Shown: positions 34,001-51,673 of the stretch, piece by piece
How positions within the stretch are numbered: position 1 is the first letter of the stretch
Layout of the letters: each line of letters opens with the position of its first letter
Source: Bacteroidales bacterium
Lineage (GTDB): Bacteria > Bacteroidota > Bacteroidia > Bacteroidales > WCHB1-69
Length of the DNA: 64,000 bases
Reading direction: 5' to 3'
NCBI GenBank assembly: GCA_031253655.1
Contig: JAIRVY010000148.1
Location: 2,121-66,120, forward strand
Translations under genes and position numbers: made by a program
The notes under the pieces: generated by a model
What the model was told of the DNA's origin: nothing
Database searches by the model: none
Seen by the model: only the letters and a program-made list of their open reading frames with translations

Positions 34001-34124
34001 AAATGAAATAAATAGTATTGAAACCGTCATTCCTCTTTATGTAGAGACAGGTGTTTATCATGTGATTTTGTATAACAAAGATTTAACCCCTTACAGTATT
34101 TTTAAATTATTGATAACTAAATAG
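31062..34124 (+). CDS. M6-family (immune inhibitor A-like) metalloprotease with Ig/Fn3-like modules and T9SS C-terminal domain
   Basis: HEMTHAFGAPDFYD zinc motif; conserved N-terminal M6 domain; two ~165-aa internal modules; T9SS-tail-like C-terminus. Confidence 0.8.
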   Translation: MKNTKPTLFFVFLFFLFSALYAIPAIPYPVTFTQPDGKELTVMLRGDERIHWHESLDGYTLLYNKVAFLTYAYLDDEGNLQPSEFIATDIENRDIVVNSFLNTIDRNLFYSDLQKDVMKKVWEIEDDYETRSNRALEGQYKTLCAFVQFPEKAMIKTISQFEGLMNQLGYTGNGTGSVRDFFKESSYNKFDLIITLCGIYTAPQSESYYAGNDGVQNCQVLARWTALQVAAEPDINFADYDSNNDGKVDGFHFIFAGKGQEAGGGAGTIWSHKWQFSPAVIKNGKSISIYSCSPELYSNIITTIGVIVHEMTHAFGAPDFYDTNYGTGGQYDGTGNWDVMASGSWNGYPGGNRPVHHNMYTKIQFGWVTSTLLNFPITIFDMPNSAENPVAYRINTGNGNEHYLLENRQKIKFDTDLPGSGLLIYHVHTNVGTSGINDTHPQRMYPVCASSAVAIPVAGTSNYGNINSAGCTFPGTSGKTAFNGTSTPRMFHWTNTVISDKPITDITQNTSAKTISFNFMGGGIITPVIDITGVPTSALVGLPLTLTGTVIPNDATFKTILWSVINAGTTGATISGNTLNNTGTGTVSIKATIENGAAFGTSFTKNFDILVTKSSQTPPSAPTLLHTTPTSITLNNIPGCEYRRDSGDWQTSTAFEGLTINTTYNFQARKYETPTHFASDPSPESQFTTALIPVTHITDIPSIAYVKVPFTLNGTILPSNASYQAIIWSIYEDYNTNTTITDDVFFANATGFVTIEATIIDGIELGINYSQQFEVTVIKSTPIPPPAPILFSKTKTSITLNEVTGCEFRMDDGNWQISNFFEGLEINTTYSFQTKKIETETHIASEPSAKAFFTTDSIKKFSITASVNNALFGTITPNGIITVDEEETLSFNIAPLDKYKISNVLVNNENKGELTTYTFENIQSNGTIHVIFTEKVGIRNNELSNINVFSHQNRIFIKNESNVPIKSVEIIDMMGRLIYQNEINSIETVIPLYVETGVYHVILYNKDLTPYSIFKLLITK

Positions 34125-34239
34125 TTCGTTTTTTACTCAAATAAATCAGTAGTATTTTCCGTCCAACGATGAAAAAAAATTGCATTTCAGTAATAATTAT
34201 ATAATATCAAAGTTTTTATTTTAGCCCTAATATTTTTTT

Positions 34240-36801
34240 ATGAAAAACACAAAATCAACCCTTTTTTTTGTTTTAACATTTTTTTTCTTTTCAGCCTTAT
34301 ATGCAATTCCTGCAATACCTTATCCGATTACTGTTACCCAACCGGACGGGAAGGAGTTGACCGTGATGCTTAAAGGTGATGAGCGCATTCACTGGCACGA
34401 GTCAATGGATGGCTACACCCTGTTGTATAACAAAGAGGCATTTCTTACTTATGCTTATTTAGACGATGCGGGCAATTTGCAACCCTCAGAATTTATTGCC
34501 ACAGCTATTGAAAATCGAAATATTTTCGTTAATTCATTTCTAAACACTATTGATAAAAATTTGTTTTACAGTGAAATACAAACACAATTGATGAAAAAAA
34601 TATGGGAGATCGAAGACAATTTTGCAGGAGGAGACGAGAGGGCATTATCCGGACAATATAAAACCTTGTGTGCTTTTGTGCAATTTCCTGATAAAGAAAT
34701 GAAAAAAACCATTTCACAGTTTGAAGGATTGATGAATCAACTTGGCTATACAGGAAACGGCACGGGTAGTGTTCGAGATTTCTTTAGAGAATCCTCATAT
34801 GGAAAATTTGATTTAATCATCACGTTATGTGGAATTTACACCGCACCGAAAACTGAAACTTATTATGCAGGTGATCCCGGTGATGGTACCGCAAACTGTC
34901 CTGAACTTGCAAGATGGCTTGCTCTACAAGTTGCTGCAGAACCGGATATCAATTTTGCTGATTATGATTCTAATAACAACGGTAAAGTGGATGGATTTCA
35001 CTTCATTTTTGCAGGGGTAGGGCAAGAGACCGGAACGTGCAACTCTTGTATTTGGTCGCATATGTCTATTGTCTATCCAGCAGTTACTAAAAACGGAAAA
35101 AAAATCGATACATATTCCTGTTCGCCTGAATTATATTCCGGTTCTACAATTACAACAGTTGGTGTTATAGCTCATGAGATGTCGCATGCTTTCGGTGCGC
35201 CCGACTTTTACGATACTAACTACCAAGTCGGCGGACAATATACCGGAACAGGAAAATGGGATTTGATGGCAGATGGCAGTTGGAATGGATCTCCGGGGGG
35301 GAATTGTCCCGCGCATCACAATATGTACACCAAAGTTCAGTTTGGTTGGGTTACTCCTTATATTTTAACTGCGCCTACAACAATCCCACAAATGCCCTAT
35401 TCGACTGAAAGCCCTGCGGCATTTAGAATTAATACAGGCAACGGCAATGAACACTATTTGCTGGAGAATCGTCAAAAAATTAAGTTTGATTACAGTGTGC
35501 CCGGAAACGGACTGATTATTTACCATGTGCATAACAGTGTGGGTTCTTACGGTATAAATAACACCCACCCACAAAAGATGTATCCCGTGTGTGCCAGCTC
35601 AGTTACACCTATTCCGGGAACTGGCGCTGCCTCAGTTCAGTATGGAAATATTAACTCCGCAGGATGCCCCTTTCCCGGAACAAGCGGCAATTCATCCTTT
35701 GACGAAAATTCAACACCAAGAATGTTCCACTGGACGAACACTGTAATTACCGGAAAACCCATTACGAATATTACCAACGATGCTTCTACCAGATTCGTTT
35801 CATTCGATTTTATGGAGGAAAGCGATAATCTGTTTTTTATTACCACAAAACCAAATGCATCAGATCGCGGAACAACAACAGGCACAGGATGGTACACCGA
35901 CAACAGTTCAATTACCGTAAGTGCCACACCTAAAGCCGATTATAAATTTTCAAACTGGACGGAGTCCGGAAATATCGTTTCTGAAGCTCCAAACTATACT
36001 TTCACTATCTTTGAAAGCGCCAAATTAGTTGCTAATTTTACAAGCAGTAATGCTCAATTATCGGATTTATGGGTTTCAACAGGTAATTTAGTCCCTGCCT
36101 TTAATACAAATACAACCAATTATACGGTTACTGTTTCCAAATCCGTAACCTTTATTACTATCTCGTGTACCACAGCAGATCAGTTCGCTACCGTTGAAGG
36201 AGCCGGTGTAAAAACGTTAGAAATTGGTAATAATATCTTTACAATTACTGTTACCGCAGACGACAAAATTACCACGAAGCAATATACGGTGAATGTAATT
36301 AGAGAGAATGAGAATAAATATACAATCACTTCAAGTGTTGAGGACAATGTTGGCGGTACTATTACCCCGAATGGTGAAACAATTGTATCGGAAGGCGCAA
36401 ATCTCACTTTCACTATTACCCCATTTGATAAATATAAAATTTTCAATGTGTTGGTTAATAACGAAAATAAAGGAGATATAGAAACTTATACCTTCGAAAA
36501 TATCAAATCAGATGGAACTATCCATGCAATTTTTATTGAAGATGTAGGTGTAGATGGGAGTATCCCATGTAACATCCTTGTTTACAGTAATCAAAATTGT
36601 GTGTATATTAAAAATAAATCTAATATTACGCTTAATTCCGTAGAAATTACAGATATGATGGGGCGTATTGTTTACAAAAAAGAAATATCTAATGAAGTAA
36701 CAAATATTCCATTATGTGTAGTAACAGGTATTTATCACGTAAAGTTATTTTGCAATGATTTAACCATCCCAAATATATATAAAATATTGATAATCAGATA
36801 A
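34240..36801 (+). CDS. M6-family metalloprotease paralog with a different middle region and T9SS C-terminal domain
   Basis: HEMSHAFGAPDFYD. The N-terminal ~530 aa closely parallel 31062..34124. The middle holds an InlB-B-repeat-like module and a cadherin-like module (LSDLWVSTGNLVPAFNTNTTNYTVTV). T9SS tail. Confidence 0.8.
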   Translation: MKNTKSTLFFVLTFFFFSALYAIPAIPYPITVTQPDGKELTVMLKGDERIHWHESMDGYTLLYNKEAFLTYAYLDDAGNLQPSEFIATAIENRNIFVNSFLNTIDKNLFYSEIQTQLMKKIWEIEDNFAGGDERALSGQYKTLCAFVQFPDKEMKKTISQFEGLMNQLGYTGNGTGSVRDFFRESSYGKFDLIITLCGIYTAPKTETYYAGDPGDGTANCPELARWLALQVAAEPDINFADYDSNNNGKVDGFHFIFAGVGQETGTCNSCIWSHMSIVYPAVTKNGKKIDTYSCSPELYSGSTITTVGVIAHEMSHAFGAPDFYDTNYQVGGQYTGTGKWDLMADGSWNGSPGGNCPAHHNMYTKVQFGWVTPYILTAPTTIPQMPYSTESPAAFRINTGNGNEHYLLENRQKIKFDYSVPGNGLIIYHVHNSVGSYGINNTHPQKMYPVCASSVTPIPGTGAASVQYGNINSAGCPFPGTSGNSSFDENSTPRMFHWTNTVITGKPITNITNDASTRFVSFDFMEESDNLFFITTKPNASDRGTTTGTGWYTDNSSITVSATPKADYKFSNWTESGNIVSEAPNYTFTIFESAKLVANFTSSNAQLSDLWVSTGNLVPAFNTNTTNYTVTVSKSVTFITISCTTADQFATVEGAGVKTLEIGNNIFTITVTADDKITTKQYTVNVIRENENKYTITSSVEDNVGGTITPNGETIVSEGANLTFTITPFDKYKIFNVLVNNENKGDIETYTFENIKSDGTIHAIFIEDVGVDGSIPCNILVYSNQNCVYIKNKSNITLNSVEITDMMGRIVYKKEISNEVTNIPLCVVTGIYHVKLFCNDLTIPNIYKILIIR

Positions 36802-36859
36802 CATTGAGTAATTCACACTTAAACGACTATTAATTTTATAAAATTATGAACTGTTTACC

Positions 36860-39160
36860 ATGAGAAAAAAACTCCCTTCTCCTTTATACTTTCTCCTTTT
36901 TGCTTTCTTCTTTCTCCCCTTTTCCTCTTTCTCGCAAACCTACAATGAAGACGACAAAGAGGGCTTGCGTATCTTTCTGCGACAACCCTCCGTAATTGCG
37001 GGCGATATTAATGCACAAAGATTAGGACTGCAAATAAGCGATACAATAAATTGGATGATGGATGAATTGTGGGTAGCTAAAGTTACTGCACTTACTTGGA
37101 ACAGTGATATACCTAAACGATTGATAGAAATATACGGTAATAATATGGGATGGGATTACAAAGGGCTTGCAGGCTACTTAGATTGTAGTTTGTGGACTTA
37201 TTTGACAAGGATGCGTTGCACTGCGAATAATTTGACAACCCTGATAGCTAACAACAACACCGCATTAACACATTTGTACTTCCGATTTAACAAGCTTACA
37301 TGCATTAATGTAAGCAATTGCCCTGCCTTGGAAGTATTGTGGTGTAGTTCCAATCAATTAACAACACTCAATATTTATAACTGCCCGGCTCTAAAGTCTC
37401 TATGGTTTGAAAAAAATTTATTAACAACACTTAATGTTAACAATTGCACAGAATTGAATTGGGTAGATTGTAAAAATAATCAATTTATCATTCTTGATGT
37501 TGGCAATATTCCGGCTTTATCGCATTTAGAATGTAGTAGTAATTTTTTATCTTCCATAAACCTTAATGCAAGTTCTGCCTTATCCTACTTGGAAATCAAC
37601 AATAACCTTTTAACAACCATTGATATTAGCAATAATAGTTTATTATCAGAGTTACATATTAATAACAATCAAATTACGCATCTTGCCCCACATTCCGAAT
37701 CTTTAGCACATTTGGAATGTAGAAACAACAATCTTGTTTCTCTTGATGTAAATAACAGCCCAAACTTACTGCATTTAGATTGCAGAAACAACAACCTAAA
37801 CTCTATTGAATTAAGTAATAATAGTAAGTTACAGCAACTCTATTGCGAAAACAACGAACTAACCTCCCTTGATATAAGTAATAGTAAAAACCTGCAAGAA
37901 CTGTATTGTGATAATAACGAATTAACCGCGCTTAATGTAAGCAATGCTACAAAATTAGAAGAGTTACTATGTAAAAACAACCAACTCACCACGCTCGATG
38001 TAACCGATTGTCATGCCTTAACCCATTTAGATTGCAGAAACAACAGTTTAGCTTCTATTTCCAACATTCATAATAAAAACAACTTAAAAAAACTGATTTG
38101 CGACAACAATCAATTAACTACCCTTGATGTGAGCAACTGCACTAAATTGGAAGAGTTGTCGTGCGTAAACAACCAATTAACCTCTCTTGATGTAGCAAAA
38201 TGTAAATCTATTGTTCATATCGATTGTAGAGATAATCGGTTAAACTCCTTGGATATCAGTAGCGTTGGAGGAACTTATCTGTTGCACGCCTTGTGGTGTA
38301 GTTATAATCAAATGTTTTTTTCGGGCATTCCTCCCACCATCCCTTATCCGTGGGAGTATGTGTATTGGCCCCAAAATACCATAGAGGGCGGCAAAATTGA
38401 TTATGATACCGGCATTGATCTCAGTAAAGAATACTTGGTGGAAGGCAATTATACCCACTTCTCGTGGTTTGATATTACCAACGAGGAAGAACAGCCGATA
38501 GAACTACCGAATGACTACGGCTTTTTCTCACTTACAGAAGAACATATTGGAAAACGCCTGCGCTGCAAAATGCACAACGCCACTTTTCCATGGCTAACCG
38601 GCAATAATATTTTGGTGTATGAGGTAACAATAAAACAGTTTTGTGAAGCGGTGAACAATCTTGAGGCGGAGAAACACCCTTATAATTCTATTCTACTTAC
38701 ATGGAGCAAACCCGAAAGCAATTTTACGGTAGCCGGATACAGCGTTTATAGAAATGAACAATTATTAAATAATGAATTATCGTCTATCTGTTCTTCCTTA
38801 GATGAAAATTTACCTGATGGGAATTATGATTACTATGTAGAAACACATTACACAAACGGTTGTATTTCAGAAAAATCGAATATTGTTACCGTAACAGTTG
38901 GGGTTGGAATAGAATCAATTAAGAATTACGAATTACGAATTACGGTGTACCCGAATCCAACTACCGGTCAATTGAAAATTGACAATGGACAATTAACAAT
39001 TGAAAAAGTGGAAATTTACGATATTTACGGTAGAAAAGTTCTTGAACCACCTCTTACGGTCTTACGGTCTTACGATCTTACGGTCTTACACCACGGTATC
39101 TACTTTATAAAAATAACAACAGAAAAAGGAACAATTACCAAAAAAATGATTAAACAATGA
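36860..39160 (+). CDS. Leucine-rich-repeat surface protein with Fn3-like domain and T9SS C-terminal domain
   Basis: About 16 LRR units (NN.LT.LD..N...L..L.C); C-terminal VYPNPTTGQL...YDIYGRKV...GIYFIKI...KKMIKQ. Confidence 0.8.
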   Translation: MRKKLPSPLYFLLFAFFFLPFSSFSQTYNEDDKEGLRIFLRQPSVIAGDINAQRLGLQISDTINWMMDELWVAKVTALTWNSDIPKRLIEIYGNNMGWDYKGLAGYLDCSLWTYLTRMRCTANNLTTLIANNNTALTHLYFRFNKLTCINVSNCPALEVLWCSSNQLTTLNIYNCPALKSLWFEKNLLTTLNVNNCTELNWVDCKNNQFIILDVGNIPALSHLECSSNFLSSINLNASSALSYLEINNNLLTTIDISNNSLLSELHINNNQITHLAPHSESLAHLECRNNNLVSLDVNNSPNLLHLDCRNNNLNSIELSNNSKLQQLYCENNELTSLDISNSKNLQELYCDNNELTALNVSNATKLEELLCKNNQLTTLDVTDCHALTHLDCRNNSLASISNIHNKNNLKKLICDNNQLTTLDVSNCTKLEELSCVNNQLTSLDVAKCKSIVHIDCRDNRLNSLDISSVGGTYLLHALWCSYNQMFFSGIPPTIPYPWEYVYWPQNTIEGGKIDYDTGIDLSKEYLVEGNYTHFSWFDITNEEEQPIELPNDYGFFSLTEEHIGKRLRCKMHNATFPWLTGNNILVYEVTIKQFCEAVNNLEAEKHPYNSILLTWSKPESNFTVAGYSVYRNEQLLNNELSSICSSLDENLPDGNYDYYVETHYTNGCISEKSNIVTVTVGVGIESIKNYELRITVYPNPTTGQLKIDNGQLTIEKVEIYDIYGRKVLEPPLTVLRSYDLTVLHHGIYFIKITTEKGTITKKMIKQ
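36877..36932. repeat. Pyrimidine-rich heptamer-periodic tract (TTCTCCT family) encoding the LRR protein signal peptide
   Basis: ttctcct ttatact ttctcct ttttgct ttcttct ttctccc cttttcc tctttct, read in a 7-nt phase. Confidence 0.7.
38917..38944. repeat. Heptamer tandem array AATTACG x4 (first copy AATTAAG) just upstream of the T9SS tail
   Basis: aattaag aattacg aattacg aattacg, encoding IKNYELRIT directly before VYPNPT. Confidence 0.85.
39052..39091. repeat. Octamer tandem array TCTTACGG x5 inside the T9SS tail
   Basis: tcttacgg tcttacgg tcttacga tcttacgg tcttacac, encoding LTVLRSYDLTVLH. Confidence 0.85.
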
Positions 39161-42100
39161 AAAAACATCTATCCATTTTTATTGCCATTGTATTTTGTAC
39201 CACAACTTTATGGGCGCAAACTTGGGTGGGGCTTACAGACACTGTGCCTGCCGAACCGGAAATCACACTTATTAATTCCACAAACCAACAGGTAAGTTTC
39301 ACAGTGGAGTTGTCGGGTTTTTATGCCACTTCTACTACCGAAAAAGGGATTACCTACCAGCGCCTTTCCATTCCGGGTTGTGGAGTGGCTGGAGAGGTGG
39401 GCACACCCGAAATGCCGATAATAACCCAACGAATTGCCATTCCCAAATGCAGCGGGGTAAACTATTCGGTGCAGATTACCGCTAGCCAAACACTGCAGGG
39501 ATACAGGGTATATCCTGTTCCCGAACATGAAACCGACTCTTCCGGCAGGCTCTCTGAGGTGTTTGCTATAAATGAGTTGGCATATCAAACCAACGCCTTT
39601 ACGCCGGTGGAGAGTTATGCCGTACTGGAAAGCGGCGCGTTGCGCAACCAACATTTTGTACAGTTAGAACTGCATCCCCTGAAATTTAATCCTGTAACGG
39701 GTCAGTTGCAGGTGGCTACCCAAATGAGTATTACTTTATCTTTTGTGAATCCTACCACAAGCGTAAATGTAAATACCGGTATCTTTAACAATGTAGCCAC
39801 GAACACTTTTTTAAACTATCAAGACCAAGGGATTAAAGCCTCTATTAATGACAGGGCTTTTGAAAAAGCAGGATTCACGCATGGGAGTGTTGATTGGATA
39901 AGAATTAATAATCCGTCAGATGTAGAAAACATTGTAGCGGACTATTTAATAATTTGTGCTGATGCATTTTTTCCGGAGGACGCTCCTAACGAAGAAATTT
40001 TACGTATTGCCCACCATAGAGCCACCTATAATGGTTTTGATGTAATGATACTTAATGTGGAGGATATTCTTAATGAAAAAGTTGGTTTTTACTATGAGCC
40101 TCAATCTGCAAATCCCGCAGTAAAGAATGCCCGGCGTATTCGCACGTGCATTCGTATGATTTACGAAGGGCAAAACGCCCAACACACCTACGATGGGCAT
40201 TTGGGCTACGTGCTGCTGGTAGGAGATGTGGATGCGGACAATACAGGAATGCCGAGTTCGAGTGCAACAGAAGGTACTGATTATTACTTTTCCTGTATTA
40301 CAAAAAATGAATATGGGATTTATGATAATGTGGGGGATTTGTATGTTGGTCGCTTTTGTGTGCCCAATAACATTTTGCCCAACGATGGTTTGCAAAAACT
40401 CTACAATATGGTAGAGAAAACCATCTTTTTTGAATCGGAAGCCAGTTTTGGCGGGTGGAGAAATAATGTCTTGTCGGGAAACGGAGACCCACCGCCCTGG
40501 GCTCTTTATTATAATTGGCTGCAAAATGAGTACATGCCATCCATAATTCACACTCAAAATTTGAAGGTTGTAAACTATTATGATGGTTACCAACAACAAC
40601 CGGTAGAAGTTTTCCGGCAAGATGTTTTGGATTTATTTAATTTTGGTGGTTCTTATCTGGGCTTTCACACACACGGCTACCCTGATGCATGGAATATGGG
40701 GCTAACCACAGATTATATATTACCCCGTCTCAATAATACTCATAAAACCCCTTTATGCGTTTCCACTGCCTGTTGGGTGGGCAAAATAGAAGAAGACTGT
40801 TTGGCAGAGCGTCTTACTCATACTTTTCCGGATAAAGGTTTTGTTGCTATGGTGGGCTCTGCTATACTTGTTATACAACCACCTCAAGAATACGGTAAAT
40901 ATTATGACATTGCAGATCTTTTTCCAAATGCCATTTATCAAAACCTATCACACATTGTGGGCGAAGCCTATTTAGAGTCAAAATTAAAGGTTTCCTCAAC
41001 AAATGGTTTTCATATTTTCGGTGACCCTGCCCTCAATATTATGGCTGATGGTTTTGAAGTTACGCACGATATAACAGTAGATTCGCTTACCGATATTTCA
41101 AGCAGAGTGCGGGTGCGCAACGGCGCTACCTTAACCTTTACCGCAAATGCAGTTGTAAATTTTCATACATACGGTCAATTGATTATTGAACATGATGGAG
41201 CACTGCAAATTGAAAACCACGCGCAATTTAACGGAAATTTTGCCGGTAATGAGCCGCTTATCCACATTAAAGGCGGAGAATTTATTGTGGGAGAGGATGT
41301 GGTGTTTCAGGATTTACACGGGGGGATTTTGTTGGAAAATTATAAAGGTAAAGAAGAAAATATTATTTATGATGATAACAAACAGTACTATTTAGAACAT
41401 ATTACCTTTAATAACTCGCCACTTATGCATCAGGGGACGAGACTACATGTTGAAAATTGCACCTTTAATCCCGGAAGTAATGTAAAATCTGATATAGGAA
41501 CTTGTAGAATTTATTATTGTAATTTTATTAATACTGTGATTTTGGCAAATCACTCTTTAGTATCAACAATTTCTGAAAATGTGAACGAAAAGCCTTTAAA
41601 TATAGGACAAATTGTAGTTGGTGGCTCTCAGTTTATCGGAACTAATAATAATACTGCATTAAAACTGATTTCTACCAACGAGCATGAGATACATGGTAAT
41701 ACAATTTCTGGGTATGAAACTGGTATTTCGTTAACCAATAGCGGAAATACCACACATCTAACAAATAATACCTTCGTTGGAAATGACATCTCGAATTGTT
41801 ATACGGGCTTTGAATTATTCAATTCACGTTCAATTATTGCAAGGAATAATATTCATAATAATGTTCACGGAGTAAAACTTTTTAACAACAGTTATACCGT
41901 ATTTGGATGGGGACAAAGTGAGCCGCATATTATTCAAAATTGCGATTCTATAGAACTATATGCTTCCGAAAACTCTTTCCCAACCTATTTTCGGTACAAT
42001 AAAATTTCTGATGTAAACAATCAAGGTTACTCTAAGGATATTCCTCTGTTTTGGTGGGACGTGGACTATCCAAACCCGGATAAAAGAGATGTTACTTATA

Positions 42101-43026
42101 ATTGTTGGGGAAATAATTTCGTACCTCAATATCATCTTTATCCTTCAGTTCTTGAATGGGACCCAGTTTGGGATTGTAGTAGTATATCCGGTTCGCCCAA
42201 ACAAGGCGATGACGAAGACCTTTACTTTGCCGCATTAGATTATTTCGCCAATGATGAATACGCCAACGCCGAAGCCACATTTAAAGAACTCATCCAAACC
42301 TATCCTCATAGCCGCTTTGCTATTGCTGCACTGCACGAACTGTTTGCATTAGAGCACTATACAAACCGCGACTTTTACAGTTTAAACAGTTATTATATTA
42401 CTTTTACACCAACTGACAGTAACTTGTTTAACACGGCAGATTTTTTGGCAACGCGCTGTATGGTAAAAGAGCGCGACTGGCAACCCGCAGTGGACTGGTA
42501 CGAAAATCGCATTGAAAACCCGCCCAGCTACCAAGACAGCGTGTTCGCCGTAATAGATTTGGGAGATATTCACTTAATGATGGAAGCAGACACCCTTTCA
42601 GGCGGTAAATCGGGGCACTACTGTCACTATCGTCTACCGAACATAAAACCCAAAAACAGAACGCACTACGAAGAAAACAAATCTTCTTTGTTGGCAACAC
42701 TGCCGCAAATAAAGAAACCAAAGACCGAAACTCCGCAAACCGACTACCGCTCATCGCACACCGCAAAGGGCGCGTTAGGAGAGTGTGTTCCTAATCCTAC
42801 AAGTGGAGATGCAACTATTTCTTATGAAATTTTTACCGGCGGGGTCGTAGAGATTCAATTTTTCAACAGTATGGGACAATTGGTGAAAAGTTTACCGCAG
42901 GGAAATTTATCAAAAGGAGATTACAGGGCAACAATCTCCGTTGTGGAAATGCCTGTGGGCGTTTATCATTATACTCTTGTGGTAATTGGGGAAAGAGTGG
43001 ATAGTAAAAAGATGGTAGTGAATTAA
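39157..43026 (+). CDS. C25 (gingipain-like) cysteine peptidase with beta-helix repeats, TPR-like segment and T9SS C-terminal domain
   Basis: Gingipain-propeptide-like N-domain, YVLLVGDVD, candidate catalytic GFHTHGYPDAW (His) and VSTACWVG (Cys), parallel beta-helix-like repeats, T9SS tail ECVPNPTSGDATISY...GVYHYTLV. ATGA overlap with the upstream LRR gene. Confidence 0.75.
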   Translation: MKKHLSIFIAIVFCTTTLWAQTWVGLTDTVPAEPEITLINSTNQQVSFTVELSGFYATSTTEKGITYQRLSIPGCGVAGEVGTPEMPIITQRIAIPKCSGVNYSVQITASQTLQGYRVYPVPEHETDSSGRLSEVFAINELAYQTNAFTPVESYAVLESGALRNQHFVQLELHPLKFNPVTGQLQVATQMSITLSFVNPTTSVNVNTGIFNNVATNTFLNYQDQGIKASINDRAFEKAGFTHGSVDWIRINNPSDVENIVADYLIICADAFFPEDAPNEEILRIAHHRATYNGFDVMILNVEDILNEKVGFYYEPQSANPAVKNARRIRTCIRMIYEGQNAQHTYDGHLGYVLLVGDVDADNTGMPSSSATEGTDYYFSCITKNEYGIYDNVGDLYVGRFCVPNNILPNDGLQKLYNMVEKTIFFESEASFGGWRNNVLSGNGDPPPWALYYNWLQNEYMPSIIHTQNLKVVNYYDGYQQQPVEVFRQDVLDLFNFGGSYLGFHTHGYPDAWNMGLTTDYILPRLNNTHKTPLCVSTACWVGKIEEDCLAERLTHTFPDKGFVAMVGSAILVIQPPQEYGKYYDIADLFPNAIYQNLSHIVGEAYLESKLKVSSTNGFHIFGDPALNIMADGFEVTHDITVDSLTDISSRVRVRNGATLTFTANAVVNFHTYGQLIIEHDGALQIENHAQFNGNFAGNEPLIHIKGGEFIVGEDVVFQDLHGGILLENYKGKEENIIYDDNKQYYLEHITFNNSPLMHQGTRLHVENCTFNPGSNVKSDIGTCRIYYCNFINTVILANHSLVSTISENVNEKPLNIGQIVVGGSQFIGTNNNTALKLISTNEHEIHGNTISGYETGISLTNSGNTTHLTNNTFVGNDISNCYTGFELFNSRSIIARNNIHNNVHGVKLFNNSYTVFGWGQSEPHIIQNCDSIELYASENSFPTYFRYNKISDVNNQGYSKDIPLFWWDVDYPNPDKRDVTYNCWGNNFVPQYHLYPSVLEWDPVWDCSSISGSPKQGDDEDLYFAALDYFANDEYANAEATFKELIQTYPHSRFAIAALHELFALEHYTNRDFYSLNSYYITFTPTDSNLFNTADFLATRCMVKERDWQPAVDWYENRIENPPSYQDSVFAVIDLGDIHLMMEADTLSGGKSGHYCHYRLPNIKPKNRTHYEENKSSLLATLPQIKKPKTETPQTDYRSSHTAKGALGECVPNPTSGDATISYEIFTGGVVEIQFFNSMGQLVKSLPQGNLSKGDYRATISVVEMPVGVYHYTLVVIGERVDSKKMVVN

Positions 43027-45568: not shown

Positions 45569-47200
45569 ATGAAAAAACTCATTTTCATCCCACTCATTTT
45601 TCTAACTATTTCATTATTTGCGCAAAACGATTTCGAAATTGCTAAAAATGTGGACATTTTTGTTTCTATATTAAAAGAACTGAATGCTAAATATGCCGAC
45701 GAAATTAATTCTACCAACTTGGTTACCAAAGCCATAAACGGAATGTTAGAAAGTTTGGACCCCTATTCTGTCTATTACCCTGAATCGAAAATCGAGGAGT
45801 ATAGATTGATGACTACCGGACAATATGGCGGGATTGGCGCTATAATTCAACAATACGGCAATAACGTTGTGATTTCAGAGCCTTATGAAAATACACCTTC
45901 CCACAAAGCAGGACTACGCGCAGGGGATATTATTCTGAAAATAAACGGACAAAATGTACAGAATAAAAATTCTGAAGAGGTTAGTATCATATTAAAAGGA
46001 CAACCCGGAACAACTTTAAACATTGAAATTGAACGCCCTACGGATAGAAAAAAACATACATTTTTCGTGAAACGAGAAGAGATTAAGTTCCCTCCCGTAC
46101 CTTTTTACGGAATCTTAAAAGATAGAGTGGGATATATAAACCTTAATCAGTTTACTGAAAAAGCAAGTGCTGAGGTAAAAGATGCTTTTATGAAACTGAA
46201 AGAGCAGGGAATGAAATATTTGATTTTGGACTTGAGAAACAACGGCGGTGGCCTCCTTACCGAAGCCGTGAATGTAATGAATCTTTTTGTGGACCAAAAT
46301 GTGAAAATCGCCGAGACAAAAGGGAAAATTAAAGAGCAGAATAATGTTTTCAAAACGCGTAATGCAGTTGTTGACAGGGATATACCTATTGTGGTTCTGA
46401 TAAACGAAACCAGTGCTTCCTCTTCCGAAATTGTGGCCGGCGCAATGCAGGATTTGGATAGAGGAGTGATTGTGGGTAAAAAATCGTTCGGAAAAGGTTT
46501 GGTGCAAAACATTGTGCCATTGAGTTATAACACATCTTTAAAACTCACTGTGTCAAAATATTACATCCCCAGTGGACGCTGTGTGCAAAGTATTGAATAT
46601 TTTAGCAAAGATACTTTGGAGGCTGCCCCGTTGATTCCCGATTCCTTAGCCACACCCTATAAAACAAAAAATGGTAGAACTGTTTACGACAAAGGAGGAG
46701 TGGAACCTGACGTAGTTACCCCTGATTCTATTCCCGGCAATATTCTCTTTGCTTTGGTAGTGAACAACATTATTTTCGATTTCTGTAATCAATATGCTGC
46801 CGACCACGAGGCAATTCCTCCGGCTAAAGAATTTTATCTCTCTGAAAATGAGTTTAATCAGTTTATGAAATTTGCTTTAGGTAAAAACTTTGAGTACAAA
46901 ACAGCTACAGAAGAGTTGTTGAAAGAATTAAAAGAGGTTGCCACCGAAGAAAAATATTTTACCGCAATTGAACCCATTTACAATGAGATTTTTAACAGAA
47001 TTGAGATAGAAAAAAACAACGATATTTACAAATATAAGGAAGAGTTGTCAGAATTTATTGCCAACGAAATCGTGGTCCGTTATTATTATCAAAAAGGAAG
47101 AATTGAACACCAACTCGGAACCGATCCTGATGTAAATACCGCCATTGAAATCCTTTTAAATCCAGCAAAATACAAAGGAATTTTATCAGGAAAGAAATAG
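45569..47200 (+). CDS. S41-family C-terminal processing peptidase
   Basis: PDZ segment (GLRAGDIILKING), NETSASSSEIVAGAMQD (Ser) and GKKSFGKGLVQ (Lys). Confidence 0.85.
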   Translation: MKKLIFIPLIFLTISLFAQNDFEIAKNVDIFVSILKELNAKYADEINSTNLVTKAINGMLESLDPYSVYYPESKIEEYRLMTTGQYGGIGAIIQQYGNNVVISEPYENTPSHKAGLRAGDIILKINGQNVQNKNSEEVSIILKGQPGTTLNIEIERPTDRKKHTFFVKREEIKFPPVPFYGILKDRVGYINLNQFTEKASAEVKDAFMKLKEQGMKYLILDLRNNGGGLLTEAVNVMNLFVDQNVKIAETKGKIKEQNNVFKTRNAVVDRDIPIVVLINETSASSSEIVAGAMQDLDRGVIVGKKSFGKGLVQNIVPLSYNTSLKLTVSKYYIPSGRCVQSIEYFSKDTLEAAPLIPDSLATPYKTKNGRTVYDKGGVEPDVVTPDSIPGNILFALVVNNIIFDFCNQYAADHEAIPPAKEFYLSENEFNQFMKFALGKNFEYKTATEELLKELKEVATEEKYFTAIEPIYNEIFNRIEIEKNNDIYKYKEELSEFIANEIVVRYYYQKGRIEHQLGTDPDVNTAIEILLNPAKYKGILSGKK

Positions 47201-47303
47201 CAGAATCATCAGTTAAATTATTAGAAAAATCTTTTCTTTTCGCCGCTGTTATTAATCATCATTTTCTATGAAATATTACAAAATTTTAGGATTATTGTTA
47301 TCG

Positions 47304-47712
47304 TTTCCTGACTTCGTCAATGCGTAAACCAAAAATTTTCATCAAAAAGGATTTCAATTCGCTTATGGCGTTTCATAATCATTGTTCTTGATAAAATTTG
47401 GTTATTGAGAAGCATCTTAATTTTGATTGTTGTAATGGTTCTTGCCATATTCAAAACTTTATCCACACTCATATTAATGTGGGATGGTATGCTGTATAAA
47501 TCTGTTCAACTGCCAACTCGGTATTTGTTAAATAGCCCTTCAAGCCATCCCATTGCGCGTCTTAATGATCTGTTTATTTTCTTCTTTACAAACATGAAGC
47601 GAAAATAGTAATAAGAGCTTGTGTACCCCAAAACAGTGTACGCAAAAAGTATAATACACAAATTGTTAATTAGTTATAATTCTGGTTTCTATTGAGTGAC
47701 GAAGTCAGGAAA
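47304..47712. repeat. Perfect 16-bp inverted repeat pair flanking 377 bp of non-coding or decayed sequence
   Basis: TTTCCTGACTTCGTCA at 47304-47319 and its exact reverse complement TGACGAAGTCAGGAAA at 47697-47712. Confidence 0.7.
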
Positions 47713-47715
47713 AAT

Positions 47716-48018
47716 CTACTTCTTGACTAAACCCAGTAACAAATCTCTTTTGTTGGGTGAAACTTCAAAAATAACTGATATTTTTTCAGTATTATCAATG
47801 GTAGAAGCATCCACATATTTTTTTGGGTATGTGAATAAATATACAATATCAACATTTAAAGTTTCTGCGATTTTCGCAAGATGGTTTACTTTTAATTGCT
47901 GCTTTCCGTTCTCAATTTTATTCCAATTTGATGCATCACAATTAATAGCAAAGGCTATATTTTCTTGACTTACACCCTTTTCCTTTCTTATTTTTACGAT
48001 GTTATCAATTACATTCAT
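47716..48018 (-). CDS. XRE-family helix-turn-helix regulator (start moved to ATG 48018)
   Basis: MNVIDNIVKIRKEKGVSQENIAFAINCDASNWNKIENGKQQLKVNHLAKIAETLNV is a canonical HTH_3 pattern. Confidence 0.7.
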   Translation of the reverse strand: MNVIDNIVKIRKEKGVSQENIAFAINCDASNWNKIENGKQQLKVNHLAKIAETLNVDIVYLFTYPKKYVDASTIDNTEKISVIFEVSPNKRDLLLGLVKK

Positions 48019-48116
48019 AGTTACAAATTTAATCAATTGATTTATACAAATTTGTGAGTATTTATATAAATTATATGATTTATTGGAATGTTTTATATGA
48101 GTTTTACTCATTTATA

Positions 48117-48124
48117 TATTTTTG
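48117..48124 (+). promoter_or_regulatory. Candidate Bacteroidota -7 promoter box (TAnnTTTG)
   Basis: TATTTTTG, 52 nt upstream of ATG 48177. No clear -33 TTTG seen. Confidence 0.3.
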
Positions 48125-48176
48125 CAGTAAGAAATTTGTATCAATTACAGTTATTCATTTATCAATTCAAATCATT

Positions 48177-48641
48177 ATGAAACAAACTCTTACCCTTTTA
48201 TTATGGCTTTGCCTACCGTTTCTTAGCTTAGCCCAAAATCCACTAACTCGCGTGTACGAGTACGATGCAGCAGGCAATCGTGTTGTGCGAAAATTAATTA
48301 CATTAAAGGTACCCTCTACGCCGGCGGAAGATTCGGTGGAAGTTACAAGTGACGAGTTACTAGTTACGAGTTACATTTATTTTGTTGAAAAACTTGCCCA
48401 ACTTGAAATGAAAATCAACCCCAACCCATCTACTGAAAAGATTACGCTTTCTATTATCAATATGAATAAATTGCAAAGCGGACTACTGCAATTGTACTCT
48501 ATGAATGGACAGTTGCTTCAAACCCAACCCATCCATTCTGCTACAAGTGAAATTTCATTGGTAGGCTTTGTCACAGGCTCATATATCTTAAAAGTACAAA
48601 TAAATGATACCATCGAAAATTGGAAAATTATTAAACAATAA
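48177..48641 (+). CDS. Small secreted protein: YD-repeat fragment plus T9SS C-terminal domain
   Basis: Signal peptide (LSLAQ), YEYDAAGNRVVRK (YD/RHS repeat), heptamer-encoded linker, then KINPNPSTEKITLSI...YSMNGQLL...GSYILKVQ...KIIKQ. Confidence 0.6.
   Translation: MKQTLTLLLWLCLPFLSLAQNPLTRVYEYDAAGNRVVRKLITLKVPSTPAEDSVEVTSDELLVTSYIYFVEKLAQLEMKINPNPSTEKITLSIINMNKLQSGLLQLYSMNGQLLQTQPIHSATSEISLVGFVTGSYILKVQINDTIENWKIIKQ
48341..48375. repeat. Heptamer tandem array AGTTACN x5
   Basis: agttaca agtgacg agttact agttacg agttaca, encoding VTSDELLVTSY between the YD fragment and the T9SS tail. Confidence 0.85.
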
Positions 48642-48674
48642 CAAATAATCTTTACCACAAAGAACACAAACATT

Positions 48675-49481
48675 ATGAATAGAAAATCAAACAATTTATT
48701 TCAACGTGCACTAATAATTCTATTTTTGCACTTCATTTTTGCAAACACAATGTTAGCACAAATAAACACGAATCTTCCTGTGGGTGCTATTCCGGGCGCG
48801 ATTGACGTGTCTCCAATGGGTGCAACAACCTACACCGTTCCCATTGAAGTAGTACCCGGCACGCAAGGAATACAACCCAACCTTTCTATCGTTTACAATA
48901 GTTCTGGTGGTATGGGATTATTGGGCATGAAATGGGACTTGGTAGGGCTGAGCGCGATAACCCGAAGCGGACAACTACCTTATTTTAATGGCCACTTAAC
49001 TGCCATACAATTTAATAATAACGATCGGTTTAATTTAGACGGCAACAGATTGTGTAATATTGAAGGCAGCGCCTATGGTGCAGTGGGCACCAAATATGCA
49101 CTGGAAATGGAAGATTTTTCACGTATCGTTTCACACGGCGGCTCACTCGGACATCCCGATTATTTTACGACTTACACCGATGGACTTCCAACTCAAATGC
49201 ACCACTTCGCAACAAATAAACATAGTTTTTACACCCCACGAATGCAGGAAGTTGTTAAACCATTAGGTCTTGACCTTAGCAGTTCCTGGAATAAAGCGCT
49301 AATGCCTCATGTAGGAAGACACCCTGATGCATATCATAGATTTGTTCTTGACCAGATGACAAAGGCTTCAAATGCAGCTGGAGGCAATCAGGCAATATTT
49401 TTACAACTTTACAATAATATCGTAGTTCAACCGGTATTAGACAATCCATTAATGCTTAGAAAAGTGGGCTGGCTGAAGTAA
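48675..49481 (+). CDS. Collapsed polymorphic toxin: SpvB/TcaC-type N-terminal domain fused directly to an xHH-type HNH/EndoVII-like nuclease tip
   Basis: Signal peptide. PGAIDVSPMGATTYTVPIEVVPGTQGIQPNLSIVYNSSGGMGLLGMKWDLVGLSAITR is an SpvB-domain signature. C-terminal QMHHFATNKH...GLDLSSSWNKALMPHVGRHPDAYHRFV fits the AHH-like pattern (HH ... G-x-D-x ... N ... P ... H-x-G-x-H-x-x-Y). No FG-GAP or RHS shell lies between them. Confidence 0.6.
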   Translation: MNRKSNNLFQRALIILFLHFIFANTMLAQINTNLPVGAIPGAIDVSPMGATTYTVPIEVVPGTQGIQPNLSIVYNSSGGMGLLGMKWDLVGLSAITRSGQLPYFNGHLTAIQFNNNDRFNLDGNRLCNIEGSAYGAVGTKYALEMEDFSRIVSHGGSLGHPDYFTTYTDGLPTQMHHFATNKHSFYTPRMQEVVKPLGLDLSSSWNKALMPHVGRHPDAYHRFVLDQMTKASNAAGGNQAIFLQLYNNIVVQPVLDNPLMLRKVGWLK

Positions 49482-49520
49482 ATACAACAAAGAATATAAC
49501 AACATAATAAAATTAAACAG

Positions 49521-50120
49521 ATGAATTACTATTTATTTAGTGGAAAAAATGCCCCCAAAGTGGCAAGTGCTTTTGCTCCGGAAGGTACTAAGCCAATTTA
49601 TGAATTAATTCTCGAATTAGATAATTTGAATGAATTACCTTTTGAATTTGAGTTAGTAAAACTTACCGTTGGTAGAAATGGGCTTATCAAGAGCAATGAT
49701 TTATCAAATTTAGAAGTAATATGGTTGGATTATCAGCCCGACAATAAGATAGGTTCATTATTTTCTAAAAAAATAAAGACAATCATTACAGAACATTTAA
49801 CCGGTAATGAGGGGATTGATTGGCTTACGGCAAAAGTTAATGGTAATGGCGAGCAGAGAACTTATTATATTCCGCGTTTTGAAAAGATGCTGAATGTACT
49901 TAATTTTGAAAAATGCACCTATAATAAAATAGCAGGTGGAGTAATAATACCTTGTTTTTCATTAGAAAAAGTAAAAAATTACAGTATATTCCACCAGCCA
50001 GATTCTACAGAATTTTTATGGAAAATTCCTACTGGACTTTACATTAGCGAGACGCTTAAAAAGGCGATACAAAAAGAGAAGTGTACGGGAGTAAGTTTTG
50101 AGCGAACATGGGTATCTTAA
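49521..50120 (+). CDS. Putative cognate immunity protein (Imm11/DUF1629-like)
   Basis: Sits immediately downstream of the toxin tip. 199 aa cytoplasmic protein; the MNYYLF start and C-terminal ...CTGVSFE resemble my memory of DUF1629. Unverified. Confidence 0.4.
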   Translation: MNYYLFSGKNAPKVASAFAPEGTKPIYELILELDNLNELPFEFELVKLTVGRNGLIKSNDLSNLEVIWLDYQPDNKIGSLFSKKIKTIITEHLTGNEGIDWLTAKVNGNGEQRTYYIPRFEKMLNVLNFEKCTYNKIAGGVIIPCFSLEKVKNYSIFHQPDSTEFLWKIPTGLYISETLKKAIQKEKCTGVSFERTWVS

Positions 50121-50143
50121 GGAAATAACAATCTGAATTATTA

Positions 50144-50171
50144 ATAGCCTGCTTTCGAGTGGGCTATTTTT
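50144..50171 (+). terminator. Intrinsic terminator after the immunity gene
   Basis: ATAGCCTGCT-TTCG-AGTGGGCTAT: 10-bp stem with two G-U pairs and a UUCG tetraloop, followed by TTTTT. Confidence 0.6.
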
Positions 50172-50174
50172 AGT

Positions 50175-50390
50175 TTACAGAGCTGCGATATTTTGTTGAA
50201 CGTAATCTTTAAATCGTTTTTTAGATACAAATGTTTCTATCAGCTTTAGGAGTATTGATTTTTCCTCTGTATCCAACTCATTGATAAGTTGCAGTTGCTC
50301 CAGAGTATCATTATCTTTTCGCTTACCTCTCCGGGTACGCCGTTTTTCTCGTCAAAGAAAATCAAGTCATCTACAGACATTCCAAAATGT
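50175..50390 (-). pseudogene. 3' remnant of an XRE-type HTH regulator gene, frameshifted
   Basis: Hand translation gives ...FGMSVDDLIFFDEKNGVPGEVSEK, then a +1 shift near 50311-50320 into DNDTLEQLQLINELDTEEKSILLKLIETFVSKKRFKDYVQQNIAAL*. There is no N-terminal HTH. Confidence 0.4.
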
Positions 50391-50593
50391 TTGAGTAATA
50401 AACAACCAACCATTATCCTAATGGGAACGCTCGGAGTTCCTTTATCAGATTAGTATGCTTTAATTTTTTTTTTAAAATAGTTCCAATCAATTGTATTGGC
50501 TAATAAAACTAGTTCATGATTAAGATTTATCATATCTTCAAGCCGAACCCGAAAAAACTCAAATTGTTCTTTATTTTGTAATTTTCCTAACAT
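50391..50593 (-). mobile_element. IS5/IS1182-like transposase N-terminal (DUF772-like) stub with in-frame stop; no DDE domain
   Basis: MLGKLQNKEQFEFFRVRLEDMINLNHELVLLANTIDWNYF...AY*SDKGTPSVPIRIMVGCLLLKH matches the conserved N-terminus of IS5-group transposases. TAA at 50450-50452 interrupts it. Confidence 0.5.
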
Positions 50594-50749
50594 AATTTGC
50601 CACTTTTTAGACCACAAAGATACAAAAAATGGCGAGAAAAACAACACTTTTTATATATTATTTTACTAACAATCAAATGTTTATATCTTTTTTAAGGAGC
50701 GACTAATTAGTTTTTAAAGATTCTTCGTTAAAATGTTGTTGTAGTTCCT

Positions 50750-51673
50750 TTACAAGGCAAAATCATCTAACCGTTTCTTTAGTCCCTCATATTTAAGTTT
50801 ATAGATGGTAGTTTCTTTAAAATAGTGTTCAAAAAAATCGGGGGTTAAGTTTGCTAAAACTTCTTCCTGCTTCCCAACAAACGAAGGGCGTAACAAAATT
50901 GCCTTCTCATTAACGGGGGCATCTGCGTTGTTTGGGCAAACATTTTGACATTCATCGCAGCCAATTAGCCAGCCATATTTAGCTATTTTAGTAAAGTTAG
51001 TTTCATTTTTATTTAAGTTAATATTAGAAATACAAAGATTACTATCCACTTGATATGGGGCAACAATGGCCTTTGTAGGACAAACAGCGATACACTGTCT
51101 GCAACTACCGCAGCTACCGAGATTAGGATTATCATAAATATCAACTTCTGCATTTATTAACAGACACCCCAAATAGACAAAAGAGCCGAATTTTGTCTGA
51201 ATTATACCGTTTTTCCCATAATAGCCTATTCCTGCCTGCACCGCCCACGCTTTTTCCGAAATAACCGAGGAATCTACTGTAATCCTATAATTAACCAATC
51301 CATATTTTTCTTGCAAACTACACGCCAAATCTTCCAACTTTTCTTTCATAAAAATGTGATAGTCTTTAATTTGTGCATATTGCGAAATTTGAGATTTGAA
51401 ATTTGAGATTTGAGATTTGAGTTGTAGAAATTGGGTGTTGTAATTATAACCACAAACAATTACCGATTTACAGTGTGCCAATAACAATTCAGGGTGAAAC
51501 CTTTTATCAATATCTCGTTCCAAAAATTCTTTATTGGCGTGCAAATTTTGAGCTATTGCTTTTTCAAAACGCTCTTTTTCAACAGGTAAAGGTTTTGCTT
51601 TGGTAATGCCACATAAGGCGAAACCTTGTTTTCGAGCTTCTTCTTTAATAAAATCTGAATTAATCCGTATCAT
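50750..51673 (-). CDS. queG: Epoxyqueuosine reductase
   Basis: CGSCRQCIAVCP and CDECQNVCP ferredoxin motifs; cobalamin-domain-like N-terminal half. Carries a heptamer-array insertion. Confidence 0.85.
   Translation of the reverse strand: MIRINSDFIKEEARKQGFALCGITKAKPLPVEKERFEKAIAQNLHANKEFLERDIDKRFHPELLLAHCKSVIVCGYNYNTQFLQLKSQISNFKSQISQYAQIKDYHIFMKEKLEDLACSLQEKYGLVNYRITVDSSVISEKAWAVQAGIGYYGKNGIIQTKFGSFVYLGCLLINAEVDIYDNPNLGSCGSCRQCIAVCPTKAIVAPYQVDSNLCISNINLNKNETNFTKIAKYGWLIGCDECQNVCPNNADAPVNEKAILLRPSFVGKQEEVLANLTPDFFEHYFKETTIYKLKYEGLKKRLDDFAL
51386..51420. repeat. Heptamer tandem array (A/G)ATTTGA x5 inside queG
   Basis: aatttga gatttga aatttga gatttga gatttga on the + strand, encoding KSQISNFKSQIS on the - strand. 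Confidence 0.85.

Follow-up and report, generated by a model that had tools for sequence, protein, structure and literature searches.

Why is a nuclease tip of the kind that ends giant RHS toxins joined directly to an SpvB-type N-terminus in a protein of only 268 amino acids (aa)? The question is raised by a locus in a 64,000-nucleotide (nt) stretch of a Bacteroidales metagenome-assembled genome (MAG; assembly GCA_031253655.1, contig JAIRVY010000148.1), which was analysed as a whole and is called the window here. The gene of the fusion protein is the second of three that together span positions 48177-50120. It follows a gene for a 154-aa mini-protein with a YD motif and a type IX secretion system (T9SS) sorting tail, and it precedes a gene for a 199-aa immunity candidate. 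A preliminary description of the locus had offered two readings, either a derivative that arose from a full RHS toxin by deletion and keeps the tip and the immunity gene, or a compact secreted nuclease whose export borrows the mini-protein. Our analyses make it probable that the locus is a recently collapsed, degenerate copy of a three-gene cassette, kept mainly for its immunity gene.

The 268-residue fusion protein and its junction

A new listing of the open reading frames (ORFs) of the region returned the same three plus-strand genes at the coordinates given before, 48177-48641 (154 aa), 48675-49481 (268 aa) and 49521-50120 (199 aa), separated by gaps of 33 nt and then 39 nt. Their parts are as follows, with the evidence for each in brackets.

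48177-48641, plus strand: intact 154-aa YD-hairpin/T9SS mini-protein (TIGR04183, PF18962, homologues, AlphaFold2)
48675-48758, plus strand: predicted signal peptide of the fusion, aa 1-28, with an MNRKSNNLFQRALIILFLHFIFANTMLA/Q site (sequence features, conserved N-terminus, AlphaFold2 helix 3-25)
48759-49181, plus strand: SpvB/TcB-type N-terminal fragment, aa 29-169, ending mid-domain (Pfam SpvB match, relatives)
49181-49183, plus strand: putative deletion or recombination junction, codons D169/G170, with a microhomology of ~TGG (end and start of blastn homologies)
49182-49481, plus strand: AHH-family HNH/EndoVII nuclease domain, aa 170-268 and stop codon (PF14412, column conservation)
49521-50120, plus strand: predicted Imm11-type immunity gene, 199 aa, no signal peptide (conserved tip/neighbour synteny, Imm11 match)

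Judging from its sequence, the 268-aa protein is made up of a predicted signal peptide, an SpvB/TcB-type N-terminus and an AHH nuclease tip. Its first residues run from a basic stretch through a hydrophobic core to an A/Q site, and this N-terminus is conserved in the related proteins P0002 and P0012 and in full-length relatives. For the fusion and the mini-protein alike, the signal peptides are predictions drawn from the sequences, their homologues and N-terminal helices in the AlphaFold2 models. The NCBI gene call (MDR0207197.1, 243 aa) begins at M26 and drops the signal peptide (window positions 48675-48752), and its label is only 'AHH domain-containing protein'. The JGI and Logan calls both give 268 aa, in agreement with the conserved N-termini of the relatives.

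The SpvB-type domain that had been proposed is recognized by Pfam (PF03534) at aa 47-105, with an E-value of 6e-8 and 32.7 bits against a cutoff of 22. This match covers profile positions 3-62 of 287 only, whereas full-length relatives cover positions 3-183 up to 3-248. The same part of the protein matches residues 31-95 of YenB/TcB with an E-value of 0.007. In the AlphaFold2 model of the fusion, the per-residue confidence (pLDDT) is below 50 for aa 27-114 and 70-93 for the tip. By these matches and this model, the SpvB domain is present but truncated, and it is not confidently folded. A profile scan of the 268-aa protein gave no match to FG-GAP, a domain found at the related loci L005, L009 and L017, and profile and motif scans gave neither an RHS_repeat/RHS match nor a YD motif. 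The FG-GAP/RHS cage and the RHS core, which in this toxin type bears a DPxG autoproteolysis motif, are thus missing from this protein, as had been noted.

The tip fits the HNH/EndoVII pattern of the AHH type suggested earlier. Pfam AHH (PF14412) matches aa 168-240 with an E-value of 4e-9 and 36.8 bits against a cutoff of 22.3, over profile positions 12-95 of 111. Of the motif listed by Zhang et al. 2012 ([AG]HH, N, H, H, Y), residues H176, H177, N206, H212, H216 and Y220-H221 are all retained, in columns with a conservation of 90% or more over 151 relatives. The residue that precedes HH is M175 rather than A or G, at a position that varies in this tip subfamily, the signature of which is HHFATNK. 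A word-indexed search with the tip alone returned one match, and an exhaustive search of 1.84 billion representative sequences was used in its place; it collected 797 relatives, in which the domain is invariably C-terminal. The tip is 99 aa long, somewhat shorter than the ~110 aa first estimated. A Foldseek search of the 268-aa AlphaFold2 model against the PDB found no match at E<=0.001, the whole-model query probably being spoiled by the low-confidence N-terminal part. Taken together, the profile match and the conserved columns point to a complete AHH-family domain, a predicted nuclease.

The homologues of the fusion form two non-overlapping classes, about 65 that align with the N-terminal half only (37-70% identity) and four that align with the C-terminal half only. 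At the nucleotide level, blastn homology of the N-terminal type stops at 49182 (L005, 73%) or 49181 (L008), and homology of the tip type (L051, 83%) begins at 49181 and continues unbroken as far as 50120, where the immunity gene ends. The alignments of relatives place the switch at aa 169/170 (nt 49181/49182), downstream of the point near residue 150 (nt 49130-49160) where it had been thought to lie. N-half relatives, many of them 55-70% identical, read YTDDGxIIEYGNT... into the remainder of SpvB and FG-GAP, and the window protein switches at YTD-GLPTQMHH. Among the tip relatives, homology starts at L171/P172, that is, at the junction (797 representatives, with columns over 151).

The proteins on either side of this comparison show what the junction leaves out. 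Among 37 complete SpvB ORFs located beside mini-protein genes, 29 are 1,980-2,205 aa long and contain SpvB, FG-GAP and RHS_repeat domains. Five SpvB proteins of 2,042-2,264 aa end in this very tip (P0247, P0230, P0235, P0292 and P0314). In P0021, a protein labelled 'RHS repeat-associated protein' with 80% identity, the end of the RHS core (...NPLKYIDPTGQ) is followed by ~170 aa and then by GGGLPTQMHH. Because complete relatives have 1,980-2,205 aa, approximately 1,800 aa are gone from the window gene, namely the rest of SpvB, the FG-GAP propeller, the RHS shell, the RHS core and the pre-toxin linker of ~170 aa. The resulting architecture is singular in our searches. Among the 73 matches of a word-indexed search over 5.8 billion clusters, the fusion was the sole SpvB plus AHH protein, and it was the sole carrier of a short SpvB N-terminus among the best 150 of the 797 tip relatives.

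The two neighbouring genes

The YEYDAAGNRV motif of the 154-aa protein had been taken for the only YD repeat left of the toxin. The protein turned out instead to be a full-length member of a conserved family. It is composed of a predicted signal peptide (aa 1-19, with cleavage likely before Q20), a YD hairpin (YEYDAAGNR, aa 27-35), a Pro-rich disordered linker (~aa 46-73) and a type-A T9SS C-terminal domain (CTD; ~aa 77-154). The T9SS tail, already recognized in the preliminary description, is detected by TIGR04183 (E=1e-11, 44.7 bits against 23) and PF18962 (E=5e-8, 33.5 bits against a cutoff of 27). Pfam RHS_repeat (PF05593) scores 13.5 bits, below its cutoff of 22. The AlphaFold2 model has a signal helix, a beta-hairpin (24-29/35-43), a stretch with pLDDT below 50 (46-73) and a CTD beta-sandwich with pLDDT above 90 (77-153). 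We collected 310 homologues; the 120 listed are all 137-201 aa long and 43-76% identical, nearly all of them from end to end. Residues Y27, Y29, D30, G33, N34 and R35 (YxYDxxGNR) are invariant in 28 aligned members, and so is the sorting tail. The linker (window 48300-48380) contains tandem ELQVTSD-like heptads, present in one to about six copies among relatives (P0098, P0140, P0168 and P0090), and looks like a stalk of adjustable length.

To describe the genetic environment of this family, we retrieved 44 loci belonging to species-representative genomes and a further 71 of metagenomic origin, and scored their stop-to-stop ORFs with hidden Markov models (HMMs) built here. Loci were considered informative if at least 400 nt of DNA followed the mini-protein gene (n=62). 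In 56 of them (~90%), a same-strand ORF with an SpvB N-terminus lies within 5 kb downstream. Stop-to-stop ORFs are a median of 4 nt apart, and the distance to the called start is mostly between -22 and +33 nt. The mini-protein gene is the first gene of the operon, and all the partner SpvB proteins examined have putative signal peptides. The association extends to distant members with 25-33% identity and to metagenomes from sources other than termites, and it was recovered when the search began from an SpvB protein (P0040/L124). True orphan mini-protein genes are few (L015 and L103).

In several apparent exceptions, one to three small coiled-coil genes separate the mini-protein gene from an RHS gene of ~2,040-2,110 aa. 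These small genes belong to a distant subgroup (L076 2381-6094, L078 889-2196, L099 10410-11639, L102 520-2336 and L125 3283-3990), in which they sit between the mini-protein and RHS genes or directly 5' of the RHS gene. Their products end in a conserved coiled coil (..LLQKVEELTLYxIEQQK..), and one of them matches Pfam Peptidase_S74, the endosialidase chaperone. Such S74-like coiled-coil genes may be an extra component of the cassette.

On these grounds we define a large family of predicted secreted proteins of ~145-200 aa, with a signal peptide, the YxYDxxGNR motif, a linker and a type-A CTD, encoded 5' of an SpvB-RHS gene. The window protein fits this description, with 100% query coverage, all the invariant residues and a next gene that has an SpvB N-terminus. 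Since it has full-length homologues of 137-201 aa and since the family adjoins SpvB-RHS genes in 56 of the 62 loci, the 154-aa protein is neither a remnant nor a part of the collapse. Termite-gut MAGs supply its closest relatives, and there are as many as five copies in a single genome. The source MAG, in which the three proteins of the locus are MDR0207196-98 (locus tags LBI45), has at least one further pair of a mini-protein and an SpvB protein (P0096/P0024; LBI45_08430 and LBI45_08095).

The third gene of the locus was proposed to confer immunity, and conserved synteny at two levels of divergence (L051 and L049) strengthens that proposal. In L051, the tip is 80% identical to that of the window and the next gene product is 82% identical to the 199-aa protein. 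In L049/L050, the tip is 56% identical and the product of the next gene (200 aa in L049, a Pfam Imm11 protein) is 42% identical. The toxin tip and its neighbour thus co-vary as a module. The 199-aa protein itself matches Imm11 (PF07791) over profile positions 99-190 of 194 with an E-value of 1e-4, at 21.9 bits against a cutoff of 22.1. These features are consistent with a cognate immunity gene of the Imm11 type.

Origin and fate of the fusion gene

The relatives suggest what the cassette would have looked like before the collapse. The first gene would encode a secreted mini-protein of ~155 aa in which a single YD beta-hairpin is followed by a flexible linker and then by a T9SS type-A tail. The second would code for a toxin of ~2,050 aa, composed of a signal peptide, an SpvB/TcB N-terminal domain, an FG-GAP propeller, an RHS shell, an RHS core, a linker and a C-terminal toxin, and the third for an immunity protein. 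An illegitimate, microhomology-level deletion of ~5.3 kb would have brought SpvB codon 169 in frame with residue one of the AHH domain; alternatively, the N-terminus may have recombined with a downstream orphan AHH/Imm11 cassette. The idea of a deletion derivative that keeps its tip and immunity gene therefore stands for the 268-aa gene, with its coincident breakpoint and full-length relatives, and falls for the 154-aa protein that had been included in it.

In Tc and Rhs cocoons, whose structures have been determined, the parts missing here normally serve to enclose the toxin, to cut it from the rest of the protein and to release it. Because those parts are absent, as judged from the Tc and Rhs structures, the YenB match of ~65 residues and the AlphaFold2 model, the 268-aa product is probably not deliverable: devoid of propeller, shell and autoproteolytic core, it would neither encapsulate nor deliver nor release a toxin. 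Its signal peptide would send it to the periplasm, away from DNA, and the host would tolerate it. Selection would retain the Imm11-type immunity gene, as a protection against the same AHH toxin coming from neighbours, and the in-frame state of the fusion would keep the operon translated through to that gene. The collapse would be recent, since no part of the locus shows decay.

Several observations weigh against such a collapse. No decay is visible in the three genes, with ratios of nonsynonymous to synonymous substitution rates (dN/dS) against relatives of 0.14-0.19 (0.16 for the tip, 0.14 for the immunity gene compared with L051 and 0.19 for the N-terminal part), values that average over long branches and can settle neither the age of the deletion nor the functionality of the fusion. 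The reading frame is preserved across the deletion, which falls at most 1-2 residues from the start of the conserved nuclease domain, and the signal peptide is kept. An in-frame junction at the exact domain boundary may be due not to chance but to selection that favoured a working product. In addition, the sequence fits an internal deletion and recombination with an orphan cassette alike, and the two assemblies that agree on the junction, that of the MAG and that of Logan, may come from the same reads.

Recombination with an orphan cassette, a variant of the collapse, is a possible but less likely course of events. The crossover would have removed the body of the gene, its own tip and immunity gene and any intervening cassettes, and the AHH/Imm11 pair would have been a displaced module lying downstream. 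Orphan AHH plus Imm11 modules with an RHS-core stub do exist (P0051, L049/L050), and many short tip-bearing ORFs start inside RHS-core sequence. The nearest relatives of the tip (L051, 83% nt identity) and of the N-terminal part (L005, 73% nt identity) are also located on different contigs. Nevertheless, full-length SpvB-RHS proteins with the same tip family are found as well (P0247 and others), which makes a deletion within a single gene equally simple, and there is no trace of further cassettes at the locus.

We regard a functional compact toxin as rather improbable. Such a protein would be a Sec-exported AHH nuclease in which the retained ~140 aa of SpvB bind the YD hairpin of the mini-protein, with the T9SS carrying or displaying the pair. 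The in-frame deletion, the intact signal peptide, the position of the junction at the boundary of the nuclease domain, the full set of AHH motif residues and the low dN/dS are all in keeping with it, as is the intact mini-protein gene 33 nt upstream. Short versions of the tip with a signal peptide occur elsewhere, e.g. P0195 (295 aa). The host, moreover, is predicted to have a T9SS, since the window contains a PorP/SprF gene (19249-20283, E=1e-44), a GldK/PorK-like gene with an FGE-sulfatase domain (20357-21847) and CTD cargo elsewhere (36860-39160). Against these points, neither the word-indexed search over 5.8 billion clusters nor the best 150 tip relatives yielded a second protein of this kind, and the SpvB domain ends mid-fold, with no confident fold in AlphaFold2. 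Entry into target cells would be unexplained in a protein that lacks the shell, the autoproteolytic core and all of the ~170 aa that precede the tip in native toxins, and binding between the mini-protein and the SpvB N-terminus is pure conjecture. The one sound element of this second reading is that the mini-protein may serve toxin export, and it applies to the family as a whole rather than to this locus.

For the family, we tentatively envisage that the YD hairpin of the mini-protein adds in trans to the beta-sheet shell of the toxin, as TcB and TcC complete one cocoon, and that the T9SS tail carries the ~230-kDa toxin across the outer membrane or tethers it to the surface on a flexible stalk of variable length; we consider this idea more doubtful than not. 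Of 33 ORFs with 1,900 aa or more, 29 were matched by an HMM built from the mini-protein hairpin, with weak, generic YD hits mostly at 46-81% of their length, from which no specific parent repeat or docking site can be deduced; the motif resembles the shell repeats of the partners only generically. Should the idea be correct, the collapsed 268-aa fusion could be a natural minimal cargo in which the docking site (aa 29-169) is preserved, and tests of piggyback export would gain a small and tractable substrate.

An assembly chimera that joins an N-terminus and a tip from different places is very unlikely, because there is little shared sequence at the junction and an independent assembly gives the same sequence. 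RHS genes are repetitive and break assemblies, and most relatives lie on contigs of 1-5 kb. The ~3 nt shared at the junction are however far below any assembler k-mer, and the MAG contig is 103,634 bp long with housekeeping genes on either side. A separate assembly of run SRR14710925 contains a contig (SRR14710925_424919) that is 100% identical to the window over 47582-50414 (2,833 bp), across the junction. This contig ends just inside both flanks of the island, beside the insertion sequence (IS) scrap described below, so that repeated or strain-variable sequence may adjoin it on either side.

Finally, the notion that 268 aa is the native size of an established family of short SpvB-N toxins can be set aside with hardly any reservation: many SpvB-N matches are indeed only 150-450 aa long, but they lie on short contigs or end in a frameshift-like manner and were rejected as contig-end or frameshift fragments, they run on into SpvB/FG-GAP rather than into a toxin, the gene reaches ~2,050 aa where the contig permits, and no other protein with a direct SpvB-N/AHH or other SpvB-N::toxin fusion was found among the 73 word-indexed matches or the best 150 of the 797 tip relatives.

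The collapse of the fusion gene has parallels, as decay recurs in this cassette family (L001-3, L004, L014/L068 and L088). In L001-L003, where the SpvB gene stops at 441 aa, a 428-aa stump of SpvB/FG-GAP follows the mini-protein gene, identically in three assemblies (9444-12139 in L001/L002), and is itself followed by an unrelated secreted protein of 261 aa with no Pfam match and a 61-aa ORF. The SpvB-RHS gene is split into 419 and 1,585 aa in L004 (10001-15956), into 987 and 1,116 aa in L014/L068 (10555-16829), where the mini-protein gene is frameshifted too, and into 345 and 1,787 aa in L088 (1011-7409). An in-frame fusion of stump and tip was found at the window locus only.

Other irregular forms were seen in the course of these analyses. 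A further SpvB-RHS gene is split into two ORFs in L124 (4001-8719). The splits in L004, L014/L068, L088 and L124 are due to frameshifts or in-frame stops, often after ~280-420 aa, and could represent pseudogenes, sequencing errors or something regular. P0073, a 394-aa protein from a JGI metagenome, has a signal peptide and ~40 SpvB-N residues fused to CBM96/PKD-like domains and a T9SS tail. The orphan AHH plus Imm11 cassette of L049 (1-16759)/L050, with P0051, has an RHS-core stub only and is accompanied by a small helix-turn-helix (HTH) gene; it lies inside a tandem-repeated element that encodes a DnaG-type primase/Toprim protein and two tyrosine integrases.

The surroundings of the three genes contain the following features.

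47716-48111, minus strand: divergent XRE/Cro-C1-type HTH regulator, 131 aa (Pfam HTH_19 E=3e-10, HTH_3 E=5e-9)
48117-48124, plus strand: candidate promoter element TATTTTTG, which fits TAnnTTTG by eye, 53 nt 5' of the mini-protein ATG
50143-50173, plus strand: intrinsic-terminator-like hairpin (50143-50168; 11-pair stem, 4-nt loop) followed by TTTTAGTTT
50450-50647, minus strand: N-terminal remnant of an IS5-family transposase, 65-aa ORF (NF033578 E=5e-7, profile positions 1-37 of 419)

The HTH_19 and HTH_3 matches bear out the divergent XRE regulator of the preliminary description. Its status as a conserved neighbour of the cassette was considered and rejected, as phmmer searches against all fetched loci gave weak matches only, in L059 and L049/L050. 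TAnnTTTG is the -7 promoter consensus of Bacteroidetes, and the match to it is a lead only. A sigma-70 promoter scan of the region gave no enrichment over shuffled sequences, with a model that does not apply to Bacteroidota. The terminator previously reported 3' of the 199-aa gene was found again at 50143-50168, the sole such site within 47000-51000, and the hairpin with its T-run is predicted to close the three-gene unit. Of the IS debris said to flank the locus, the downstream part corresponds to the IS5 scrap on the minus strand, and the upstream part (47200-47700) has no family match; small ORFs in 47200-47700 and 50246-50453 gave nothing in NCBIfam scans. The island as a whole is flanked by housekeeping genes, an S41 peptidase gene ending at 47200 and queG at 50750-51673.

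Farther away in the window, the gene after that of the GldK/PorK-like protein codes for a Mur ligase and not for PorL, PorM or PorN, making 19249-21847 a partial T9SS core operon, with the remaining machinery outside the window. Large secreted proteins that are likely T9SS cargo are encoded in 31062-43026. They include two M6 (immune inhibitor A-like) peptidases, a leucine-rich repeat protein bearing a Por_Secre_tail and a C25 gingipain-like peptidase along with its propeptide.

Comparison with known systems

The toxin type (TcdB/TcaC-type SpvB-RHS), the Tox-AHH tip and the Imm11 immunity protein are all of known kinds. RHS polymorphic toxins of the TcdB/TcaC type, with SpvB N-termini, as well as the pairing of Tox-AHH with Imm11 in Bacteroidetes, are listed in Zhang et al. 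2012 (PMC3482391). As in that type, which corresponds structurally to the TcB/TcC or YenB cocoon of ABC toxins, the immunity gene of the window locus lies directly 3' of the C-terminal toxin, 39 nt away, and the full-length relatives of the window gene share the SpvB, FG-GAP and RHS repeat regions. In contrast, the window protein has lost the rest of SpvB, the propeller, the RHS repeats and the core, leaving a stump and a tip with which no cocoon would be possible. With respect to Tox-AHH/Imm11 (PF14412/PF07791), it has an AHH match above threshold, the HH/N/H/H/Y-H motif and an Imm11-like gene next to it in a conserved pairing. It differs in the M before HH, in the HHFATNK signature and in an immunity protein that scores 0.2 bits below the Imm11 cutoff.

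The fate of the locus has a parallel in the orphan toxin/immunity modules and acquired orphan immunity genes of Rhs and contact-dependent inhibition (CDI) loci, in which a tip and its immunity gene are likewise kept without a deliverable full-length toxin. By analogy with these modules, retained immunity is the likely benefit. Classical Rhs/CDI orphans have an RHS-core stub and neither a start codon nor a signal peptide, whereas in the window the tip is in frame with an N-terminus and a signal peptide, and has no stub. The locus appears to be a recent and quite ordinary collapse, in a cassette of a known kind, and one more example of polymorphic-toxin decay in which immunity is kept. Its analysis is of use for annotation, as both the label and the start call of the fusion at NCBI can be mended. 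The conserved partner is the interesting lead.

Eag (DUF1795) chaperones and adaptors are encoded upstream of PAAR-Rhs effectors of the type VI secretion system. Like them, the mini-protein is the product of a small accessory gene directly 5' of an Rhs toxin gene, and it plausibly links the toxin to a secretion machine. Unlike them, it is itself a predicted T9SS substrate with a YD hairpin, and it bears no relation to Eag proteins in sequence or fold.

Related neighbourhoods have been reported twice. Steele & Moran 2021 (PMC8125069) observed that most Apibacter rhs genes with SpvB/TcdB N-termini adjoin genes with a T9SS type-A sorting domain and suggested a link with the T9SS, and Jana et al. 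2020 (PMC7073777) argued similarly, from gene neighbourhoods, for TANFOR toxins encoded next to T9SS cargo. Apart from the remark on Apibacter, literature searches that combined the T9SS with Rhs, YD repeat or SpvB turned up neither a description of the mini-protein nor a mechanism. In these systems as in ours, a PAAR-less SpvB/TcdB-type Rhs gene stands beside a gene with a T9SS type-A CTD. The earlier link was one of gene adjacency alone, whereas here the partner is defined as a family whose sole mature part is a strongly conserved YD hairpin on a disordered stalk, and whose gene starts the operon and is followed within 5 kb by an SpvB-RHS gene in 56 of 62 informative loci, drawn from termite-gut and other metagenomes. 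The mini-protein family thus provides a concrete, testable adaptor candidate for the surface export of PAAR-less SpvB-type RHS toxins in Bacteroidota, and bears on a possible role of the T9SS in interbacterial killing.

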